DNA of 64,000 nucleotides from a virus. The stretch covers positions 40,435 through 104,434 of the IMG/VR virus record IMGVR_UViG_3300021197_001653. The stretch is one strand, 5' to 3'. Positions 11,285 through 59,568 of the stretch are shown piece by piece. Under the pieces are notes generated by a model. That model ran no database searches. It saw only the letters and a program-made list of their open reading frames with translations, and had not been told where the DNA came from. Within the stretch, counting starts at the first letter, position 1. Every line of letters starts with the position of its first letter. A program made the translations under genes and the position numbers.

Positions 11285-14200
11285 ATGGGAAAAATATGTA
11301 ATAGACTTGCTGTAACTAATAACCAGCATTCAGAACTATTTAATACTTTACTTAGTATTGCTAATAACAATGAAGAGTTAGCAGATGAGTATTATGCTTT
11401 TTTTAAGAGTGAAAGATTTATTAATGATTTTGGTGATTATCAAGATCAATATACTAATTTTGATGCTGCTAATTTAAAAATTAGTGAAAAAAGATTAGAT
11501 ATTAATCATGAACCTAAGTTATTTCTTGATAAAAAATATAATAGTTATTACTATAAGAATAAACATCATAAAAAAGTATATTACCCTAGTAGTACTAGAA
11601 ATTTAAATGTATATTATTCAAGTGAAGCTATTGACTCTATATCTAAAATTTTAGCATTAGACTTTTTAAAACCAAGAATAGGTGATGATTTTAATGATTT
11701 AAATCTAAATAAAGAAAAAGGTAGATTAATAGATAGTATTAAAAATAAATTAGAGTCTAAAATTAAAGAACTTAAATCAGGCCCTAGTATTATAGAAAAA
11801 ACTAAAGGTGGGGTATTAGAATTAACATTACCTCACTTAAATGAATGGGTTAAGAATGTTGAAGATTATTATAAATCTATTAATTTAAACTACGTTGAAA
11901 CAACTGAACAAGATGATGTTGATGAAGATACATCAGCCCCTGGTCATGCATATGGGTTATCTTCTTTTGAAAAGAATTCAAAAGATAATGTTACGAGTAA
12001 TATAAAACTTAGACTTTCTTTATTGCAACATGGGACAGAGGTGGATTATTTATTTTATGAACCTATATTAATATCTTTTGATGAAGTCAATAGTTCTTTA
12101 CAGAAAACTTTAACTAATAGTATTGCTTTAATGAAAAATGGTCAACAAGAAGACTTGTTTGAAATATATAAGCAAGAGATACATACATTATCATTAAAAA
12201 AACCTTATTTAAAATCTTTAACAGCTCAATTAGATAATATTACTGATATTAATTTAAAGTCTCAATTTGTAAGAGCATTTAATCTAGATAAAAATAATTT
12301 TATAGGTACAATATATGATATAACTAAAGACAATATTATTGTAGATGTATTAAATTTATCTGATGTTGGCTCTAAAACCAATATGGTTAAAAATAACTGG
12401 ACATATTCTTTTATTAAAACTGTATCAAATTCTAATCTTGAGATTGATGAGGCATCTATTACTAAGATAAATGATATAGAATCTGCTTTTAAAGGATTTT
12501 ATGGTGATAAAAATAGTGGTTTTAGAAAAGATGTATATAAAGGTACTGTAAACCTAGAAAGGGCTAGTGATGAAATTAGAAATATATTAAATGACTTAGG
12601 TATAAATACAACTGAAAATGGATTTAATCATTATTTAGATGGTTTAGAAACTAGTACAGCTGATAAAGATTTAAGAATAGAAAACTTAAGTAATTTATTA
12701 TCTAGTGTTAATTATTTATTTAAGAGTTTAAAAACTATAACTACTAAGAATTATAAAGATATTTTAAATAGTCAGAATGAAATAACAAACTTAGCTAAGG
12801 CTGAGTCATTCTTTATTTCAGAAGGTTCTGACGCATCTATATTTTCAGTAGGTAAATCTAAATGGGTTTATTCTAACCCTTCTTACTTATCTAATAAGGT
12901 AAAAGAATGGAATAAGGATATTACATATTTAGATAATCATTTCAATGCTAGTGAATTTAATAAAGGTTCTCATTATATGTCTACCATGTTAAACACTCCT
13001 AGTTTAGTTAAAAATCTTACTTTAAATGTATTTAATTCACTGCAAGTAAAAAATGACGCTGTCAATGCTAGTGATGGTAAAACATTATCTAAGAATGATG
13101 CACTTGCAGATTCATATAATAAAATATTAGGTTATAAAAAACCAGGTGGGAAGTCTTATTTTAATACTCCTACACCAGCAGATAAATCAACTCAATATCA
13201 AATAGGTATTCCTAATGAGCTAATGGTGGAAACTAATGCTTCATTTGATAGAGATACTAATCAAGTTGTTATAAATGATTCAGCTTATGAAATATTAGTA
13301 AGCTATATTGTATCTGAACATAATAGAATGAGAAAAGTTCAGAAGGAGATTGATTCTGGTACAACTACAATGATAGAGCATTACCATATAGGTAGAAAGA
13401 ATGGTATTAAGTTTCAAAGTATTCCTGAATTAAACCATGATAATTTTAAAAACTTAGGTTTTAATTTTGAACTATATGGTGAGAGTGGAGAAGTTTTAGA
13501 TATTGATTTAACTGTTGAAGCTAAAGCTCAAATTAAAGAATATATTAAAGATATAGTATCTAAAAACATTAAAGTTTTTTATGATACATTATTTGATAAG
13601 AAGTTGTTATCATATAATGCAGATGGTGTGATTATCAATAAAGGTATTGACAGTAGTATATGGTCTTCATATGATTCTAGATTTAGACCATTAAAGGTTG
13701 CGTCAGATATATTTATAAATGGTTTAATATCTCAGATAGAATATTCTAAAATGTTCTCTGGTGATGTAGCTTATTATAAAAATGCAGATGATTATAAGAA
13801 AAGAATACCTGCTACATATACAGATGGGTTGCAGTTATACACGCAATCATATGATAACCCTGTTGATCAAAATAAAGAAAATTATTTTAACATTGCTGTT
13901 ATCAATAATGTAGTAGTAAAAACACCTTATTATGAAGAATTAGTAAAATTAGTAGGTGAAGATATAGCTAGTAAATATTCTGACATTAACTCTACTGATG
14001 CACAAGCATGGATTACTCCTGAAAGATGGAAGTTTTTAATGGTAAGGTTAGGTAAATGGTCAAATGTACATGATTCAATTTATGACAAGTTTAATAACCC
14101 AAATGCTGAATATACTTCTACTGAATTAAAACAAGTAGCACAACCCTTAAAAGGTGTGTATTTTGAGATTAATAATGGTGTACCTGTTTACTTAAAGTAT

Positions 14201-17200
14201 TCACAAGCTGTATTAGTTCCTAATATGGTTAGAAATAATAAAGGGTTGCAGACATTAGTTAATAAAATGAAGGATGCTGATATACAAGAACTTATTACAA
14301 TTGATGGTGTAAAAGTTGGTGCAGCAAAACCTGTTAAAACTCATACTGATGAAGGTATTGTTTTAAATAACTTTGAATTAACACCATATCAATTAAAGAA
14401 TAGTGGTTGGAAACTTCAACAAGATTTACCTATTAAGACATTCAAGTTAACTGAAGTAGGTTCTCAGATTCAAAAGAATATATATGCTGGTTTATCAAGT
14501 AATTTAGATAAAACATTTGATGTTAATGATATTGAAATGAGTGGTTCTGAATTAATAGAATACATTAATAATATAGTAGCTCAATTATCTAATAAAGGTA
14601 AGGATAGATTCACAAAGGAATTTGATGTTGATGATAATAATAAAATCAATAATATAGACGCTCTTACTGATACACTATTAGATGAATTAAAAACTAGAGG
14701 TGCTTCTAAAAATGTCATACAAGCATTAGAAAGTGGTATTACCCCTTATGCTATACCTGGATATCAGCAAAAAATACAGAATGTATTTGCATCTATTGTA
14801 TTAAAGAGATTAGTTAAAATTAAGACTAATGGTGGTTCATTTATTCAGATGTCTAACTATGGTTTAAATAAAGATGAAGCTGATAATAAAGGTGTTATAT
14901 GGACTCCATGGGCTAAGGAAACTACACATGAATATGAGGTTATAGGTGAAAAGAATGGTAGACAGATAATTAGACCTGCTGGTATGTTAATCAGTGGTAG
15001 TTTAATAGCTAAATATATACCTAACTATAAGAAATATAGTACTGCTCAATTATTTGGAACAAAAGAGAATGATTATAAAGATGCAATGATAGATAAGAGA
15101 ATTCTAGATTCAATAATAGGATATAGAATACCTAATCAGCATTTAGCGTCTAATGATGCATTAGAGGTTGTTGGTATATTACCAGAAGAAATGGGTGATA
15201 CTGTTATTGCTTATACAGGTATTACAACTAAGACTGGTAGTGATTTTGATATTGATAAGATGTATCTAATGATTCCTTCAATTAAAGCTATAAGAAAAGA
15301 TGGTGACGTATCTAAATTAAAGTATGTAGAAGATGAAGGTCTTAGTTTGGAAGATCAATCATTAGCTCAGTTACAAAATAGTTTAATTCAAGCTTATAAG
15401 GCTGTTATATTAAATGAAAATGTGATTGAAGATGTAATGACACCCATTGATTTTGATTTTATTAAAGATGATATATTAGATTTATTTCCTAAAGATCCTA
15501 TTGAAGCATATGATACATTTAATATCAATAAAGATGTAGATTTAAAATATGAATTTATGGCTGGAAACGCTGGTATTGGTCAAACTGCAAATATGCTAGT
15601 TGATCATAACAGAGGGTTAATGGCTGATATATATTTAAATGATACTGATATTGGAATGGGTTTTAAAAATGATAAAGGTTTCACTACATTTGACACAGAA
15701 TACTCTGAAGTATTAAATGAAATAAAAGACCCTAAATTAAAAAGTATTAAAGTAGCACATTCTTTATCTGCAATAATGAATGGTTACGTTGATATAGCTA
15801 AAGATTCATATATAACAAGAGGTAACTGGACTACACAAACAGCTAATGTTGGATTTATGTTAATAAGAGCTGGTGTACATCCATTTAAGGTGAATGCTTT
15901 ATTAGGACAACCTATTATTAGAGAGTATGTTGATTTTATAACTAACTCAGAATCTAAGATAATTAATGAAACTAGTAATATTAAAGATAAGTTTAAACAA
16001 GAACAAATAAGAAAATTATTAGAAAACGATACATCAATAATTACAATTAATGGTATATCATTAACTAAACGTAAGATATATAAATTAGTAGATAGTAAAC
16101 CAACCCTTAATAAATTAGCTACAATATTTAAATTAAAAGAAGCTGATGAAGAAGTGTTAGATTTATATAAGCATTTAAAGTCATTAGATAAATTATTTGA
16201 AGATACTAAATCTGCTAATGCTAGTAACTTATCATTAAAAGATCTTAGATACAATGTAAAGAATCCTAAGTCTGCTAAGTTACAACCTGAGATATTAAAT
16301 TGGTTCTATGAATTAGTAGATAACTCTAAGAAACTAGTGGAGAACATTAATGCATCTAAAGTTGATGTGAATGGTTACGGTAAGAATATTGGATCTTTAA
16401 TTGTTACAACTAATCTAATAAATAAATTATTAAATGAGAAAGAAAGTGGTAGTTTTATGGGGTATGCTTCAAAGCTTCATTATAATAATGAACCAACAAT
16501 ACTAGGGGCTTATACTGAGAATTCAGTTAATTATATTAAAGATGTAATGCAAGCTAATCCATTATTTTTTGCTACGGCTAATCAGTCAATAATTAATACA
16601 TTTAATGATATTTCTAAGAGTATTACTAATGAAAATTTAATGAATCCTAAACTAGCTGATAAATTAGAAAAAGATTTTTATTCATATTTATTAAGTGGTT
16701 TTGAACCATTAAAAACTAGCCAAGAAGAGAAAGAAGATTTAATAAATAATTTACCTGATAGATTAATGGCTTATTCTAAAGAAAATGAAAACTTATTCAT
16801 AAAAGAATTAGATATTAAATTAGGGGATGATAGTATTTTTTATATTACAATGAATAATAAGAAAAAAACTCCTGAATATCAAACTGAATTAACAAATGCA
16901 TGGTTAGATTTAATAGTTGAAAATAAAAAATTAGGTAATGATTTAATTAAATATTCTTATTTAACATCTGGATTTAAAATGAATATAAATCAGTTTTATA
17001 CTTATATACCATATCAATTCTTTGCTGAAGGGCATATAGATGAGTATATTAATGAAACATTATTTGAGTTGAGTAATTCAGATATATCAGATAAACAATT
17101 TAGTACACAATTCTTTTCTCATAATATTACTGATTACCAACTTGTAGGTAAAATACATGGTAGTCAATTGAATAAAAAAGGATTATCTAATCCAGCAGGT

Positions 17201-40288: not shown

Positions 40289-40903
40289 TTATAGTGTTGT
40301 CCAATCAGTAGTTGTACCAGCAGCGGTTGGACTTGTTATATCCATTCCTGAAGCAGGTAAACTATCATCATCTGCAACAACTCTAATCATTAAATCATTA
40401 GCACCTTCCCTTAATTTAGTAGAACCGTCTTCACTAGCTCGTTCAATAAAGTTAAAATATCTAAGATTTAAATAACCTTTTTTACTTGGATAATCTTTAG
40501 TTCCATAAGTAACAAATACGTTAAATTTGGAATCACCAGCATTATCACCAATTATTTTAAAAAGTATATCGACAATACTTTTTGGAGTCATCCCAGCTGT
40601 ATCAGGGTATTTGTATGTAGGTCCTACTACAGCTCGTGCTATATGTAAAACCCTACTTATTTCCCTTTTTGCAGCTACTTTAACTTGCTCCTCAGTTTGT
40701 CCATCTCTTTTTGTTGGATAATTAAACCAACCTGTTAATAATCCACCATCATTATCTTTTACAATTAATTTATAAGGTGAATTTGTTTCTGGCTCACCAG
40801 GTTTTCTAACATCAACTGATATAGTGACATTTTTTGCTACCCCTGCTGCTCCGTTATTAAAAATTGTAGTTTCCTTGAAATCTTTCCCATTTAAATCAAA
40901 CAT
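40289..40903 (-). CDS. Putative single-stranded DNA-binding protein
   Basis: 204 aa, acidic flexible tail ending DWTTL. Position between the AAA ATPase and primase as in crAss-like replication modules. Confidence 0.55.
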   Translation of the reverse strand: MFDLNGKDFKETTIFNNGAAGVAKNVTISVDVRKPGEPETNSPYKLIVKDNDGGLLTGWFNYPTKRDGQTEEQVKVAAKREISRVLHIARAVVGPTYKYPDTAGMTPKSIVDILFKIIGDNAGDSKFNVFVTYGTKDYPSKKGYLNLRYFNFIERASEDGSTKLREGANDLMIRVVADDDSLPASGMDITSPTAAGTTTDWTTL

Positions 40904-41774: not shown

Positions 41775-42242
41775 TTATGTGGTTATAAATTCAGAGTATC
41801 TTATATTACAATTAACAAAACCTTGACCTTTAAAAGTACGACTAGGTCTAGTTGTAATTATATCTTTAAATCCAAATGAATAAAAGTTTTCACCATGAAA
41901 ATTATCTTTCCTTATGTTTGGGCAATATATAAAACTTAATGATCTATTTTTAGTTTTTAATGTATCTTCCAATTCAATAATTTTAGTAAATATGGTATTT
42001 ATTTTTGTTTCTGGATAATAGAATTTAACTAGTTTAATTATATCATCTAGTGAACGATATCTTCTTGCACCACAATGTCTACCTCCTCTAGTGTATACTG
42101 TTGTATTCTCACCTGTGGTAAATATTGTTTCTTTTATAATCTGTTCAATACTAGATACTTCAATATCTCTAAATTTAATTTTCCTACATTGAGAGTAATA
42201 TTGTTCAACATCCTCTCGTGTTATTACTTCTCTTTTTGTCAT
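41775..42242 (-). CDS. Hypothetical protein, family A (RS..D....P...C..I), paralogue of intron cargo ORFs
   Basis: HCGARRYRSLDDI...YYP...IYCPNIRK resembles 53760-54242 and 51661-52053. Confidence 0.6.
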   Translation of the reverse strand: MTKREVITREDVEQYYSQCRKIKFRDIEVSSIEQIIKETIFTTGENTTVYTRGGRHCGARRYRSLDDIIKLVKFYYPETKINTIFTKIIELEDTLKTKNRSLSFIYCPNIRKDNFHGENFYSFGFKDIITTRPSRTFKGQGFVNCNIRYSEFITT

Positions 42243-50705: not shown

Positions 50706-51653
50706 TTATCTTATTGTATTTACAAAATCATAAACTTGTTTCATATTTACTTCATCTTTTGGTAAAGGTAGCTCTTTAAAGTAATTCACTGCACCATCAA
50801 AATATAATGGGCAGATAGTACCAGCACCGCCTTCTCTACCACCTAAAATTTCTAAGAATCTAATATTATCTTTAAAAAATCTAATATCATAATCTTTGTA
50901 TTCAGGTATTTCATGTCTAAAAGGATTAAATAATCCTAATATAACATCAGCATCTCTCTGGGTAAGTTTACAATCCCCTAATCCATCTAAACTAGGTTTA
51001 AGCTTGTTAGCTTTAAAATTATCTAAACTCTCTTGAGAAGATGCTTGCTGTTGTATTACTACAAGTGAATATTTATATTTGTTACGTAGTCTAATTAAAT
51101 AATCTGACGATAATTTAACAATAGATGCATGTAAACCCATTTGTTTACCATCTATACTCTCCGTGGAGATTAAACTAATATGGTCAATAAAAACCATAAC
51201 ATATTCATCTGGATCATTTGGTTCATAATAATCATCAATCTCTTTTTCAAAGAGCTCACCTGTTTTATTATTTACAAATTCAACTTTCTTAGTATGTTGT
51301 GTTCCATTATTAACCGCATATTCTCTAACAAATTTATATATACCTGTTGGATTTCTAATATCATCAATGAATTCAACTATTTCTTCAATTTTCTCAAAAT
51401 AAGGTTTATATTTCTCAATAACTTCTAATACGTTATCTGGTAATACATTATCTTCCTTGGTACTTCTTAAATCTTTAGGTGCTATTCTTATTCCCTCTTT
51501 TACATAAAGTATATTAGAGAATGCTGATAACATTTTTTGTTCTTTAGACATCTCTAAAGTAAAATAAAATATTTTTAATCTTATGTTTAAGTCGTTATCT
51601 ACGACTTGTTGAATAGTATTATACAGATAAAGCCAATCAGCTATCTGCGTTTT
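50706..51653 (-). CDS. dnaB: Replicative DnaB-like helicase, exon 2 (315 aa, begins at Walker A Lys)
   Basis: Begins KTQIADWL. FTLEMS, FIDHISL, VIQQQ, DCKLTQRDADVILGLF, REGG. Confidence 0.9.
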   Translation of the reverse strand, partial: KTQIADWLYLYNTIQQVVDNDLNIRLKIFYFTLEMSKEQKMLSAFSNILYVKEGIRIAPKDLRSTKEDNVLPDNVLEVIEKYKPYFEKIEEIVEFIDDIRNPTGIYKFVREYAVNNGTQHTKKVEFVNNKTGELFEKEIDDYYEPNDPDEYVMVFIDHISLISTESIDGKQMGLHASIVKLSSDYLIRLRNKYKYSLVVIQQQASSQESLDNFKANKLKPSLDGLGDCKLTQRDADVILGLFNPFRHEIPEYKDYDIRFFKDNIRFLEILGGREGGAGTICPLYFDGAVNYFKELPLPKDEVNMKQVYDFVNTIR

Positions 51654-51660
51654 CAATTTG

Positions 51661-52053
51661 TTACTTATTAAATATAGAATTGTATAGATTTTCTAAATAC
51701 TCTGGTGTATATTTACCATAATTTGAAAATCTAAAGGTGTTTTTATACCTATTAGTTACTCGTTCTTCAGATACACACCAAAATTTATGTTTATGAGTAT
51801 ATTTGAAAAACACTATATTTTTAATATCAGGGCATCTATATGCTCTAAATTGTTGTGATACTAAGCATTCCATTAATAATGCTTCACTCACACCTTTAAA
51901 TCTATATAATTTAAATAAATCTCCAAAAGTTCTTCTTGCATATATTTTATCATCATTTTTAAAAAGTTTAAATTTAAAATAATCTAAAACTACATTTCTA
52001 GGTCTACTTGGGCATTTATTATTTAAGTCCTTTATTAATTCTTCTTTATTCAT
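51661..52053 (-). CDS. Intron cargo ORF (P9.2-type loop), family A hypothetical
   Basis: 130 aa. RRTFGDL...YRCPDIKNIVF. Almost wholly enclosed by the 13-bp stem. Confidence 0.65.
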   Translation of the reverse strand: MNKEELIKDLNNKCPSRPRNVVLDYFKFKLFKNDDKIYARRTFGDLFKLYRFKGVSEALLMECLVSQQFRAYRCPDIKNIVFFKYTHKHKFWCVSEERVTNRYKNTFRFSNYGKYTPEYLENLYNSIFNK

Positions 52054-52127
52054 TTTTTTCTATATTTAATTGGTTCAGTCATTTCTGCTGAACTCTATAA
52101 TTTATAATAAAAAAATATAAAAATTAA

Positions 52128-52769
52128 TTAATCAACACAATTTAATAACCATGTTTTAATAGTATTACCACTGTTGCTATTTATAGCTGTTTCATGAGAG
52201 TCTGTTAACTCTTCTAACCCAGTATCAACAATACTAAAACGATTATGATTTGTATTTGTAGATAACACTGCCATACAACTAGTGTTCTCTTTAATTAATT
52301 CAAAACAAGTTTTAGATATATGTGTTGTTAATTCACGTCTTTCCTCTGCATTTATAGTATTAAACCTTTGACCAAAGTTATAAATAGATGTAGAAAAAGC
52401 ATTTAAATTATATATTTGATTTACACCACAACTAATCTCTGAACCACTTAAAGATAAACTGGGGCTAGCATTATAATTTCTTCTACCAACATTATATGTG
52501 ATATCAAAATCATATGCACGACCTACATCCATATTAATAACAAGCGCTTCTTTAATAGAATCTAATGTTGGATTAACAACAGGTTCTTCTACTACTTCCT
52601 CAACAATTGCTTGTCTAATTTCTTCAAATAATTTCTTTGAATAAGAAGCTATTTTATTCTTATCATTTTCTATATTATACATATCTCTTGTACTCCCTAA
52701 TATAATATAAGGATTACCTTTTGTTAATGCATAATTTTTAGCATTAATACAAGTTACTTGTTTTGCCAT
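52128..52769 (-). CDS. Intron cargo ORF (L9), family B hypothetical
   Basis: 213 aa. N-terminal CI....LTKG..Y SH3-like module, C-terminal SCGVNQIYNL...NSNSGNTIKTW. Confidence 0.65.
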   Translation of the reverse strand: MAKQVTCINAKNYALTKGNPYIILGSTRDMYNIENDKNKIASYSKKLFEEIRQAIVEEVVEEPVVNPTLDSIKEALVINMDVGRAYDFDITYNVGRRNYNASPSLSLSGSEISCGVNQIYNLNAFSTSIYNFGQRFNTINAEERRELTTHISKTCFELIKENTSCMAVLSTNTNHNRFSIVDTGLEELTDSHETAINSNSGNTIKTWLLNCVD

Positions 52770-52828
52770 TTTAATTAATTTTTTAAATTTTTATTGTTTA
52801 TATTTATAGTTCGGACTGTCTCATCAAC

Positions 52829-53086
52829 CTAACTACACATACATGTATTGTCTCCTCCACATTTACATTCATTAGGTTGCTCATTGTCAGTCTCTACACC
52901 GTTTTGTAATTTTTTTAATATTAAATATTTAATATCCTTAAAAGGAGTATCTTTTTCAATATCCTTTTTTACTAGAGATATTAAATAACCAATATCTTTA
53001 TTATCAATTGACGGCACGGGATTGTCTTTAATTTTGTCATTTTTTATGACACTTTTAACTTGCTCACTATTTTTATCGCTAGTCAT
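52829..53086 (-). CDS. ORF reading through the intron catalytic core (coding status uncertain)
   Basis: 85 aa. ATGA overlap with the upstream stop. Spans P5'/P4'/P6/P7/P8 and stops in the P8 3' strand. Confidence 0.35.
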   Translation of the reverse strand: MTSDKNSEQVKSVIKNDKIKDNPVPSIDNKDIGYLISLVKKDIEKDTPFKDIKYLILKKLQNGVETDNEQPNECKCGGDNTCMCS

Positions 53087-53721
53087 TTTATTCTAGGTAT
53101 TAATAAATTTCTTTGTAATTCTGCATATTTTTCAGATTTACTTACCATTAATTTAATAGTACTTATCGTTAACTTATTTTTAGAAACAGGTTTAAATAAA
53201 TTATTTATATAACCATTTGTATTCAATTTGTCAATAAATTGATTCCAGCTTCTATATGTATAAAAATGATTTAGTCTATTATTTACAGGTACAACATCCA
53301 TACTATTACGAATACTTGAACCACCACTTGAATAATGGGCTAATAAAATAGCATTATATGGTTTCACACCATTATCTATCAAATCAACCATTTTAACTAA
53401 TATTTTCTTTAATGTTCTAGTTCTAACATACCTACATAATTTAAAAAAGATTCTTTGATTTTTATTTTTAAATTTAATTTTACTTTCAAATATAAAACTT
53501 TCTTCTTTAATATTATGCAATTGCATTATTTTATCAAATTTCTTAAATAAAGTAATTAATAAAGTACATTCTTCTTTACTACCTGTAAATTTATGAATAT
53601 GGTGATTTTGATAACCATCACTACAATTCATATACATATGTATACTATATACATTACCACTACGCCATTTATTATTACACGATGATGGTATTCTAGTCAT
53701 TTTTGTTAAACTTGTTGCCAT
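53083..53721 (-). CDS. Intron cargo ORF (L5), hypothetical
   Basis: 212 aa between P5 strands UCUUUAA (53733-53739) and UUAAAGA (53025-53031). Confidence 0.65.
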   Translation of the reverse strand: MATSLTKMTRIPSSCNNKWRSGNVYSIHMYMNCSDGYQNHHIHKFTGSKEECTLLITLFKKFDKIMQLHNIKEESFIFESKIKFKNKNQRIFFKLCRYVRTRTLKKILVKMVDLIDNGVKPYNAILLAHYSSGGSSIRNSMDVVPVNNRLNHFYTYRSWNQFIDKLNTNGYINNLFKPVSKNKLTISTIKLMVSKSEKYAELQRNLLIPRIK

Positions 53722-53759
53722 TTTTTATTTTTTTAAAGAGTTTCCCCGTTAGCTAATAT

Positions 53760-54242
53760 TTATAAATTTAATTGATCATTTCGTATATCAATTAATTGAT
53801 TATACGAAATACCATCCACTCCTACTTTCTCACCAAAGTATTTTTTACTATAATTGGTGATGAAATTTTTTCTACAAGGATTATCCTTACTAAACCCACC
53901 TACAACAACAAACTTATTTACTTGGGTACACCATACTAAATAGCATCTATTATCATGATTTAATTCTGCTACTATTCTGATTACTGCGTCAATAGTTGTT
54001 ATTGGAAACCTACTTCTAACGATAGAAGTTAATTCAGATATAGACCTACTTGATGATCTATTACATTGAATATTACCATTCTTGTGATATGTGTTTGGTC
54101 TTTTTTCTAAAAATTGTCTTAAGAAACTTTTTCTTGTCTTTGTTAATGGAATATCTGTTTCATTAACATAAATTATTTTCGTGATAGTTTTCATTCTTAT
54201 TATTAATATTAACCTCCAAAAATATCTAATAACTTTTTTCAT
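53760..54242 (-). CDS. Intron cargo ORF (between P2 and P3), family A hypothetical
   Basis: 160 aa. QCNRSSSRSISEL...SRFP...VWCTQVNK. Confidence 0.65.
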   Translation of the reverse strand: MKKVIRYFWRLILIIRMKTITKIIYVNETDIPLTKTRKSFLRQFLEKRPNTYHKNGNIQCNRSSSRSISELTSIVRSRFPITTIDAVIRIVAELNHDNRCYLVWCTQVNKFVVVGGFSKDNPCRKNFITNYSKKYFGEKVGVDGISYNQLIDIRNDQLNL

Positions 54243-54271
54243 GTTATTTATTTAAAAGTTAGATTGTTTAT

Positions 54272-55177
54272 TTATTTTTTTATTGATGCATATGCTTCTG
54301 GCATCACACTTCTTTCTGCAAAATTTATAAATGGTTCTACTGCTTCCGATTTTGTTTTAGATAAATCAGCTATAGCTTCTTCCATTAATCTTCCTTTTTT
54401 TTCTTCTTTGGAATTCTGAGTTTTAAGATTATTTTCTTTTGATACTTCTTTTTCTATTTTTTTTTCATTTAATACATGTTCTCCAGGATTAAAATGATAT
54501 ACATTTATTGTATTTTTGGAATTATTATTAACATACGAGTATTGCAATTGAAATCCTAATCTTTCAACAAAATCTTTTGCGGTACTTTGGTTATCTGTAA
54601 TATGTGCAATTTTTGCAGCTCTATCAACATTTAAATGATCAAAGATAATTTTATAATCACTTATTATTAAATTTTTATATCTACAATATACACCACTACT
54701 ATTCTCAAAGTTAAATAATATTTGACAACCACAACAATCTGAATGTGGTGTTTGTTTAAATAAACTTATACCCGGTCCATTATTTTTAAATATTGATAGT
54801 TTACCATTAGAATCTTTTATACGAACAAATGAGGTATCACTAATACTTATTTGACTACTTCGTGAATTTGAATTTGTTACTTTTAAATGTCTTTGATACC
54901 ACGGTTCATTTAATACCATATCATTTTCATTTATTATTCTATTTATTATAACGCCATCAGATAGTTTTAAACCTTCTCGTATATGAAATGCCCATGAATA
55001 TGTATATAATTCAGTTATAGGATGTTTAGAATTAGCAGGCCGACTACCTTTTTTATTATTTTGAAAAAAATAATATAGATTATTTAATTTAATTACATGA
55101 CCTATTGTATATGTGCCATTAATACTTCCTTCTACATGTATCTGATCATTATCTGATAATTTTTCTAGTTCTTTCAT
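54272..55177 (-). CDS. Intron cargo ORF (between P2 and P3), family B hypothetical with GNAT-like C-terminal motif
   Basis: 301 aa. YFFQN..GS...Y.YSW N-terminal module, DCCGCQILFNF, NQ..AKDFVERLGF, NNNSKNTINVY. Confidence 0.65.
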   Translation of the reverse strand: MKELEKLSDNDQIHVEGSINGTYTIGHVIKLNNLYYFFQNNKKGSRPANSKHPITELYTYSWAFHIREGLKLSDGVIINRIINENDMVLNEPWYQRHLKVTNSNSRSSQISISDTSFVRIKDSNGKLSIFKNNGPGISLFKQTPHSDCCGCQILFNFENSSGVYCRYKNLIISDYKIIFDHLNVDRAAKIAHITDNQSTAKDFVERLGFQLQYSYVNNNSKNTINVYHFNPGEHVLNEKKIEKEVSKENNLKTQNSKEEKKGRLMEEAIADLSKTKSEAVEPFINFAERSVMPEAYASIKK

Positions 55178-55227
55178 TTTTTATAATCTTTTTTCCATAT
55201 ATATTACTATATACAGGGGCAAAATCT

Positions 55228-55398
55228 ACCCACTTTACTATTCGCTGTTATAAGATAATATTTACCTTTTTCTATACCAGGTAATTCATTTTCAAATCTT
55301 GGTAAACCCCATGGTATACAATTTACCTTTCCAGATAGAATTCTATTTTTTCTATCTACTAAATTTTCATAAACTCTACTATATAATGTCTTTTTCAT
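55228..55398 (-). CDS. dnaB: Replicative DnaB-like helicase, exon 1 (57 aa, ends at Walker A Gly)
   Basis: MKKTLYSRV...NCIPWGLPRFE..LPGIEKGKYYLITANSKVG. The unspliced frame stops 6 codons into the intron. Confidence 0.9.
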
Positions 55399-55567
55399 AT
55401 ATTTTTTCATACAATATTTTAAGATATTCATTTTGTGCATGAATATCATATTTTCCTTTATTGTTAATAAATTGTGCTTTATTAACTTTTCTTCTACTTA
55501 ACGACGGTATAACTATATATTTTTCAGTATGATATACCGTTTTTATAAATTCTTCTAATGTTAACAT
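55379..55567 (-). CDS. Hypothetical protein
   Basis: 62-aa ORF coupled between the 55.6-kb gene and dnaB. Confidence 0.5.
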   Translation of the reverse strand: MLTLEEFIKTVYHTEKYIVIPSLSRRKVNKAQFINNKGKYDIHAQNEYLKILYEKIYEKDII

Positions 55568-59479: not shown

Positions 59480-59494
59480 TGTTTATTTTTTTAG

Positions 59495-59568
59495 TGGACC
59501 CAGAGAGATTTGAACTCCCGACCCTCTGATTATGAGTCAGATGCTCTAACCAACTGAGCTATGGGTCC
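59495..59568 (-). tRNA. tRNA with CAU anticodon (Ile2-like; elongator Met alternative); CCA not encoded
   Basis: GGACCCA-TAGCTCAGTTGGTTAGAGCA-TCTGA-CTCATAA-TCAGA-GGGTC-GGGAG-TTCAAAT-CTCTC-TGGGTCC-A forms a complete cloverleaf. Confidence 0.93.

Follow-up and report, generated by a model that had tools for sequence, protein, structure and literature searches.

A divided helicase gene was studied in a marine crAss-like phage, represented by the virus record IMGVR_UViG_3300021197_001653 of IMG/VR, of which positions 40,435 to 104,434 were analysed as one stretch of 64,000 nucleotides (nt; hereafter the window). Inspection of the minus strand, on which all features given below lie, revealed that a DnaB-like helicase gene was interrupted in its Walker A codons by an insert of 3574 nt, a candidate group I intron. 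The insert parted exon 1, ending with GGU (55228), from exon 2, starting with AAA (51653). Exon 1 (55228..55398) comprised 57 codons with the 3' end AAA GUG GGU (K V G), its product terminating in ..ANSKVG, while exon 2 (50706..51653) comprised 315 codons, the first two being AAA ACG, and encoded the N-terminus KTQIADW. Excision of 51654-55227 gave an in-frame A-N-S-K-V-G-K-T P-loop and a protein of 372 amino acids (aa), the start being taken as Met 55398 as judged from usage in relatives. The exon ends, the G-K-T P-loop and the 372-aa product had been predicted at these coordinates by a first-pass annotation made from the letters of the DNA, and the sequence bore them out.

In the called open reading frames (ORFs), exon 1 appeared as an 80-aa ORF (55449-55207) with the C-terminus ...ITANSKVG-RFCPCI*, its frame being stopped by UAG at 55209-55207, 6 codons inside the insert. 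Exon 2 appeared as a 316-aa ORF (51656-50706) with a TTG start followed by KTQIADW. The latter was recognized as a DnaB-like helicase by its match to phrog_19 (E 1e-7), and its closest cultured relative was Cellulophaga phage phi14:2 (Crassvirales, Steigviridae), with 55% identity. The split gene was the sole phrog_19 match in the 104-kb genome, the record of which is rated complete. phrog_19 was used for this search because Pfam DnaB_C missed even the split gene; the genome search with Pfam DnaB_C, which returned no match, was thus uninformative. Between the exons, six same-strand ORFs of at least 85 aa were found (301, 160, 212, 85, 213 and 130 aa).

Alleles with and without the insert

Approximately 120 related phage loci were gathered from viral and metagenome collections and labelled L002, L062 and so on; L012 denotes NC_021806.1 12982-16707, from phi14:2. 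It was found that the helicase gene was uninterrupted at the exact predicted base in about 50 related phage contigs, representing 41 distinct alleles (L003 and 40 others), which read ...AGT AAA GTA GGT|AAA ACA... across the junction. Because the intron-less alleles are contiguous at the same base, the insert interrupts the gene cleanly and its removal restores the frame. A homologous insert of 761-3598 nt was present at the same position in about 30 distinct alleles, phi14:2 included, and these alleles stemmed from many independent samples (Tara, JGI, IMG/VR). The comparison with dnaB of related Crassvirales, which had been proposed as a check, thus yielded both intron-less alleles and alleles with ORF-free loops.

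In phi14:2 (NC_021806.1), the gene defined by homology was 12982..13149 joined to 15766..16707. Exon 1 corresponds to g024, which is labelled 'hypothetical protein' in RefSeq, and g025-g028 lie inside the insert; the RefSeq DnaB (g029) is begun at an internal Met (15865). Among the intron-bearing alleles, exon divergence was 0.31-0.46 at third codon positions versus 0.07-0.16 at second positions. This bias was seen in both exons, so the split gene is still under coding (purifying) selection.

In a quick protein tree of exon 2, two intron subtypes, denoted B1 (the window's subtype) and B2 (the compact alleles), fell in different parts, and intron-less alleles were nested among intron-bearing ones. 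The presence and absence of the intron on this tree required at least 6 changes on starred branches, a pattern compatible with largely vertical inheritance, the intron having been precisely lost or gained repeatedly.

Further introns were observed close to the insertion site. In some relatives, a second canonical group I intron (intron A) was located 9 nt upstream, after ..ANS, with an RF00028 score of 96.5 bits in L005; it was found in L002:4230-5427, L005:4904-5943 and L006:5265-5788, and also in L050, L053, L055, L072, L089 and L114. Intron A often carried a GIY-YIG/NUMOD1 gene, and a 9-nt mini-exon, AAAGUKGGU (K-V/I-G), was left between the two introns. In L084, L082 and L098, a related intron with the same P2 and GUAA loop was located 4 nt upstream of the window's site, with the junctions AAGGU| (5') and ..G|AGGAAAA (3'). 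Taken together, the three sites place three intron positions within 13 nt of Walker A codons. In L114 and L119, the exon 2 match began only at residue 33-36, and the preceding ~110 nt held a group-I-like core, ACGGGGAAAA..CAAUCCCGUACC..CGACUA, which suggests that exon 2 is interrupted there by a further intron after about 35 codons.

Ribozyme helices and their covariation

The shortest allele at the same site was L062 (5240-6000, 761 nt), the first 280 nt of which were non-coding. Searched alone against Rfam RF00028, it scored 67.1 bits (gathering threshold 50; E 3.6e-17) over model positions 1-253, that is, the full model. A gathering-mode Rfam scan of ten short alleles, L062 among them, gave no group I match, which in the case of L062 was a filter miss. 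L062 and the window had in common the insertion site, the 5' end GUGGGU|A..UUUUGCxCC, the P2 hairpin with its GUAA loop, and the motifs ACGGxGAAA, xCCGUGCC, GUAGAGACU, GAxGAGAxAGUCC and CUAUAA...UUAUAG. J8/7 read GAUGAGA in the window versus GAAGAGA in L062. The two differed in that L062 had one ORF after P9, P7.1/P7.2-like elements and P3 right beside P4, whereas the window type lacked P7.1/7.2, had P3.1 and P3.2, and bore coding insertions in P6 and P8.

In the window's intron (51654..55227), P1 to P10 were all present, spread over approximately nine short segments of 20-70 nt. The first base was A 55227 and the last was the terminal G (omega-G) at 51654. P1 paired GGGU (55231-55228) with GCCC (55220-55217), giving a U.G at the splice site next to an internal guide, and the P10 guide UUUU (55224-55221) paired with AAAA of the 3' exon. 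P2 (55216-55208/55203-55195) was a 9-base-pair (bp) stem capped by the GUAA loop. It was followed by P2.1 (54425..55190), which was read from the sequence as an 8-bp stem between AAGAUUAU (55190-55183) and AUAAUCUU (54432-54425) and also formed in the ORF-deleted fold described below. The 5' strand of P3, CUCA (54420-54417, followed by GAAU), had its partner P3', UGAG, at 52883-52880. A 7-bp stem provisionally named P3.2, AGCUGAU (54371-54365)/AUUAGCU (53757-53751), preceded the segment 53733..53749, which held the 5' strand of P4 (ACGGGG, 53749-53744), J4/5 (AAAC) and the 5' strand of P5 (UCUUUAA, 53739-53733). The labels P3.1 and P3.2 are provisional because group I introns do not normally have two elements between P3 and P4.

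The catalytic core (52804..53031) was homologous to the RF00028-matching core of L062. It contained P5' (UUAAAGA, 53031-53025), P4' (UCCCGU, 53021-53016), P6 (GCCGU, 53015-53011/ACGGU, 52902-52898), P7 (GACUG, 52892-52888/CAGUC, 52818-52814), P3', P8 (AACCUAA, 52878-52872/UUAGGUU, 52832-52826) and J8/7 (52825-52819), so that a core of P3-P9 with the P3/P7 pseudoknot was obtained. The strands of P9, CUAUAA (52809-52804) and UUAUAG (52100-52095), were ~700 nt apart. Downstream lay the P9.1 hairpin with a GAAA loop (52093-52073), the 13-bp P9.2 (52070-52058/51679-51667) and, after the P9.2 3' strand, the intron 3' tail AAGUAACAAAUUG (within 51654..51679), which ends in omega-G.

Such a set of helices goes well beyond what chance would produce. 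In about 25 independent alleles, compensatory changes had preserved the same helices, including the pairs separated by 700 nt. For P1/P2 (23 distinct rows), 94% of the cells were paired and 10 of 13 pairs had changed on both sides; none of 500 shuffles scored as high, and slid controls were 26-52% paired. The U.G at the 5' splice site was present in 23/23 distinct rows, with UUGGU/GCCAA as P1 in L005 and L070. The terminal G was found in all alleles, and P10 was UUUU/AAAA in the window and AUUU/AAAU in phi14:2, whose exon differs. Among 26 alleles, P4 occurred as ACGGGG/UCCCGU (18), ACGGUG/UACCGU (7) and ACGAGG/UCUCGU (L002), with covariation across loop lengths of 22 to 965 nt. The compensatory versions of P5 (UCUUUAA/UUAAAGA, CCAUUA/UAAUGG, CCUUUU/AAAAGG and UCAUU/GAUGA, with 13 bp in L005) crossed loops of 4 to ~950 nt. 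At position 5 of P7, GACUG/CAGUC was found in 7 alleles and GACUA/UAGUC in 14, with one G.U and zero mismatches. P9 occurred as CUAUAA/UUAUAG, CUACAU/AUGUAG and CUGAAA/UUUCAG. P6, P8, P9 and P9.1 also covaried, P9.1 consisting of ten different stems on a constant CAGAAAUGA loop.

P1, P2, P4-P9, P9.1 and P9.2 as drawn by the first-pass annotation were thereby confirmed, and its reading of P7 GACUG/CAGUC as a compensatory version of GACUA/UAGUC held, since both versions occur among the alleles. Its tentative P3 required correction: the helix exists, but as CUCA/UGAG at the positions given above. In the window's subtype, P3 followed the form YUCN/NGAR (CUCA/UGAG, UUCA/UGAA, UUCC/GGAA, CUCU/GGAG) and was fully paired in 10 of 11 alleles; the window's CUCA falls inside the C-terminal tail of ORF1. 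The hinted alternative, UAGCU before P4 as P3, was rejected, as it showed no covariation with the P3' segment; it belongs to the 3' strand of P3.2, conserved as UUAGCU just before P4. In relatives, P3.2 was 8-13 bp long, with 13 bp and compensatory changes in L049 and L014. When the ORFs were deleted, the resulting 337-nt version formed all expected nested helices in ViennaRNA (z = -10.8 versus shuffles), a consistency check only and partly circular, because the cuts were made at stems.

Genes within the ribozyme

The six ORFs took six positions in the intron. ORF1 (54272..55177, 301 aa) was the only one between P2 and P3; its conserved part, enclosed by P2.1, ended near residue 225, and its C-terminal tail read through P2.1', the P3 5' strand, P3.1 and the P3.2 5' strand. 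ORF2 (53760..54242, 160 aa) followed the P3 5' strand and lay in the loop of the extra stem P3.2 just before P4. ORF3 (53083..53721, 212 aa), ORF5 (52128..52769, 213 aa) and ORF6 (51661..52053, 130 aa) were located in the loops of P5, P9 and P9.2, respectively. Five genes thus lie in the terminal loops of P2.1, P3.2, P5, P9 and P9.2, and a sixth small gene, ORF4 (52829..53086, 85 aa), is read through the core from L5 to P8. The earlier count of five ORFs at four sites, two of them after P2, has to be replaced, the 85-aa ORF 53086-52829 having been omitted.

Inspection of the relatives showed most of these loops without their genes. There was nothing between P2 and P3 in L062, L026, L024 and L023. 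For P3.2, L002 had a hairpin capped by GAAA, and the hairpins of L026, L024 and L023 were short. L5 was a GAAA tetraloop in L062, L093 and L072, P9 was CUAUAU-GGUGAC-AUAUAG in seven alleles, and P9.2 was a short hairpin in L011 and L051. Since P3.2, L5, L9 and L9.2 are each ORF-free in some relative, the ORFs represent insertions into loops.

ORF4 was read through P5', P4', P6, J6/7, P7, P3' and P8, with its stop UAG in the P8 3' strand and its Cys-rich tail encoded by the P8 loop. Its peptides NPVPS and NGVETDNEQP are translated P4'/P6 and J6/7-P7-P3', respectively. The frame was open and the same in 17/17 alleles of subtype B1, in which the distance from P4' to P7, 108 to 198 nt, was divisible by three in every case; the alleles of subtype B2 had the same RNA motifs without ORF4. 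The G/A change in P7 converted D to N in ORF4 and was compensated in the P7' strand, which is non-coding. In view of the RNA-level covariation in the core, the RNA constraint is also real, and the same bases are subject to both RNA and protein constraint. No terminator-like sites were found on the coding strand within the intron, and a promoter scan gave results at chance level.

With Pfam and PHROGs, the cargo ORFs gave only sub-threshold matches, and a sequence profile search of the PDB with the cargo proteins gave nothing. ORF2 and ORF6 fell into a single family of 22 plus 5 members, which occupied two different sites in the intron. Its AlphaFold model had a pLDDT (predicted local distance difference test) of 87, and residues 34-118 resembled a winged-helix fold with a middling Z of ~7; this winged-helix-like family was the commonest cargo (22 members). 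No match to ORF2 was obtained by tblastn against 50,697 phage records, and a profile search of 5.8 billion proteins for the family returned 17 hypothetical proteins, several on ~100 kb contigs. A free-standing 155-aa paralogue with the motif RS.DD...YCP was observed in the window (41775-42242), adjoining a Sak4-like ATPase gene. Like free-standing endonuclease genes, the family is thus found within introns and elsewhere, but it has no nuclease motif. For ORF5, an SH3-like N-domain and a GNAT-like C-domain were predicted (pLDDT 87, Foldseek probabilities 0.96-0.99, E ~4e-3). Comparison of the ORF1 and ORF5 C-domains by hhalign (E 0.002, probability 15%) weakly suggested that the former is related to the GNAT-like domain. 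The structure models therefore point to winged-helix-like ORF2 and ORF6 and a GNAT-like ORF5, none of the cargo proteins being a recognised homing endonuclease.

Endonuclease genes were found elsewhere in the family. Other alleles carried LAGLIDADG_2 genes (E 1e-34), and the neighbouring intron A carried GIY-YIG plus NUMOD1. The LAGLIDADG_2 genes in L023:4801-5421, L055:4761-5381 and L119:2639-3259 were located directly 3' of the P7 5' strand, where subgroup IA introns bear P7.1/P7.2. ORF3 was considered as a degenerate LAGLIDADG protein on the basis of protein-atlas features (0.82-0.85); this was not supported, the hhalign probability against the LAGLIDADG family of the other alleles being 0.3%.

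Outside the intron, a tRNA-Met gene (59494-59568, anticodon CAU, 75 bits) was observed upstream of the replication module; the equivalent position in relatives held one or two tRNAs.

Interpretation and comparison with known introns

Taken together, these results lead us to regard the insert as a functional group I intron in the Walker A codons, with a probability of roughly 85%. By homology and covariation it is assigned to the group I class, and its architecture appears to be new for phages. The proposal of the first-pass annotation, a distributed, gene-hosting group I ribozyme, is supported by the clean insertion, the RF00028 match of L062, the covariation, the ORF-free loops and the selection on the exons.

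Several observations weigh against this interpretation. In the window, no RF00028 match was obtained at the gathering threshold or at E<=10 (51500-55400), because the ORFs separate the core motifs, and the ORF-bearing allele L005 (5890-8010) likewise had no RF00028 match; assignment to the class is thus based on homology to L062 together with covariation. The latter indicates that the family was selected for structure and is not proof that the window's allele is still active. The window's P3.2, with 7 bp, was equalled by 38 of 300 shuffles and was not significant alone; P2.1, the 8-bp stem read as closing the ORF1 loop, was also not significant individually, and P3.1 and P3.2 between P3 and P4 are non-standard for group I introns. 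A 3.6-kb intron with a translated core (ORF4) and translated loops should fold poorly under ribosomes. Finally, no run on record as RNA contained window 51300-55500, of which one DNA metagenome run had a small share.

A rival suggestion is that the insert is a decayed group I intron that no longer splices, leaving the helicase inactive or made as two polypeptides (57 aa, and 316 aa from TTG). The TTG at 51656 would allow exon 2 to be read, the missing RF00028 match and RNA runs would be as expected, and the heavy ORF load, with one ORF across the core, should hinder folding. A parallel would be nrdA of Aeromonas phage Aeh1, in which an endonuclease gene separates the two parts. However, the split in the window separates G from K in the Walker A GK[ST], so that two fragments must rebuild the P-loop over a chain break, and exon 1 gains only 6 codons and no dimerisation segment. 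Moreover, the window's core helices, J8/7, U.G and omega-G are intact and compensated where they are unlike those of relatives, the structure is kept in about 25 alleles, and both exons are under purifying selection. Decay of the intron is thus considered quite improbable.

That the insert is not an intron of the group I type at all, being a mobile gene cassette at the DNA level, an assembly chimera, an intein or a group II intron, is scarcely credible. Its interior does resemble ordinary phage genes, and no nuclease family of Pfam or PHROG was recognised in the six window ORFs (LAGLIDADG, GIY-YIG, HNH, PD-(D/E)XK and EDxHD were considered). Nevertheless, about 30 independent contigs share the arrangement, as does a phage that has been cultured and fully sequenced, and conserved RNA helices that covary would be unexpected in a plain cassette. 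For an intein or split intein, neither an in-frame ORF nor a Hint or intein Pfam match was found, the exon 1 frame ending after 6 codons. For a group II intron, there was no Rfam group II match and no reverse-transcriptase domain in the window. No recombinase was found, and no transposase above threshold such as an IStron would have, only a trace of DDE_Tnp_Tn3 (E 0.064) that fell far short of the cut-off.

A group I RNA that cannot fold alone, and whose splicing needs an intron-encoded or host maturase or chaperone, for example the products of ORF4, ORF2 or ORF6, is a refinement of the interpretation as a functional group I intron and does not contradict it. The intron is very long and its pairing partners are far apart; ORF4 is in frame over the core throughout B1; the commonest cargo family has no nuclease motif; and host RNA chaperones assist the phage T4 introns (PMC3984707). 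On the other hand, no cargo protein is similar to known maturases, ORF3 against LAGLIDADG giving the hhalign value quoted above, and ORF4 is absent from compact alleles such as L062. Dependence on such a protein is possible but somewhat unlikely.

If the insert acts as a group I intron, the whole 4.7-kb region would be transcribed as one pre-mRNA, and ribosomes on exon 1 would halt at the UAG after reading six codons of the intron. The long-range stems would assemble the core, an external guanosine would attack after the U of GGU (the P1 U.G pair), P10 (UUUU/AAAA) would align exon 2, and the terminal G 51654 would serve exon ligation, restoring GGU|AAA ACG (G-K-T) and the 372-aa helicase. The cargo might be made from the precursor, from the excised intron, or from promoters not detected in the scan. 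We infer that the present allele still splices, as well as this order of events and the route of cargo expression.

A further reading, which we regard as doubtful, is more speculative. The intron may be a heritable cassette platform, in which at least six ribozyme stem-loops act as interchangeable cargo slots and cargo expression is tied mechanically to maturation of the helicase mRNA. Within this reading, translation of ORF4 through P4'-P8 would unfold the core, and ribosome traffic could therefore be a switch timing or throttling helicase output; alternatively, the ORF4 or winged-helix products could be a new kind of maturase.

An intron family in environmental crAss-like phages thus bears up to six genes, one of them overlapping the core, inside the single gene on which the phage depends for unwinding its DNA. 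If the intron splices, the limits for ribozyme folding under coupled transcription and translation would be wider, introns could be carriers of ordinary, possibly adaptive, viral genes, the DnaB annotation would be corrected in phi14:2 and in many genomes from metagenomes, and introns of this kind would be seen to escape covariance-model scans, since neither the window nor most alleles were detected with RF00028. The cultured relative phi14:2 makes the splicing prediction directly testable.

Core genes of Crassvirales are known to harbour numerous group I introns (Yutin et al. 2021, PMC7886860). The introns of gut crAss-like phages were found there via endonuclease domains, in MCP, PolB, primase, ATP_43b and RNAP genes, and neither a DnaB intron nor multi-gene introns were found to be mentioned in that paper. 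The first-pass annotation knew of no such architecture in phages, and a literature search, the coverage of which was incomplete and is not proof of novelty, likewise gave no earlier multi-ORF phage group I intron and no DnaB intron in Crassvirales or Cellulophaga phages.

The T4 td, nrdB and sunY (nrdD) introns resemble the window's intron in being group I ribozymes in a conserved motif of a DNA-metabolism gene, with a 5' U.G, a terminal G, an in-frame stop soon after the 5' splice site and ORFs in terminal loops, off the core; relatives of the window's intron also bear LAGLIDADG genes. The T4 introns are ~0.6-1 kb long, with one ORF in one loop. In contrast, the window's intron is 3.6 kb long and has six ORFs at six positions, no recognisable endonuclease, an ORF through P4'-P8, and the extra stems P2.1 and P3.2. 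Phage group I introns normally bear one endonuclease gene, and their small size and their rarity in protein genes are usually explained by translation interfering with the folding of the ribozyme (PMC3984707).

An IStron, a group I intron joined to an IS200/IS605-type element (PMC4227781), is likewise a composite element, in which a bacterial-type group I ribozyme is combined with more than one non-endonuclease ORF. Its cargo is a 3' transposon with transposase genes, whereas the window's ORFs are spread through the ribozyme and include no transposase. The ND5-717 group I intron of hexacoral mitochondria houses other mitochondrial genes, the cargo being in one large loop. As in the window, several genes unrelated to mobility lie inside the intron, and maturation of an essential gene would need the removal of protein-coding RNA; ND5-717 is organellar and not viral, and the window's cargo is distributed over at least five separate loops and varies between alleles.

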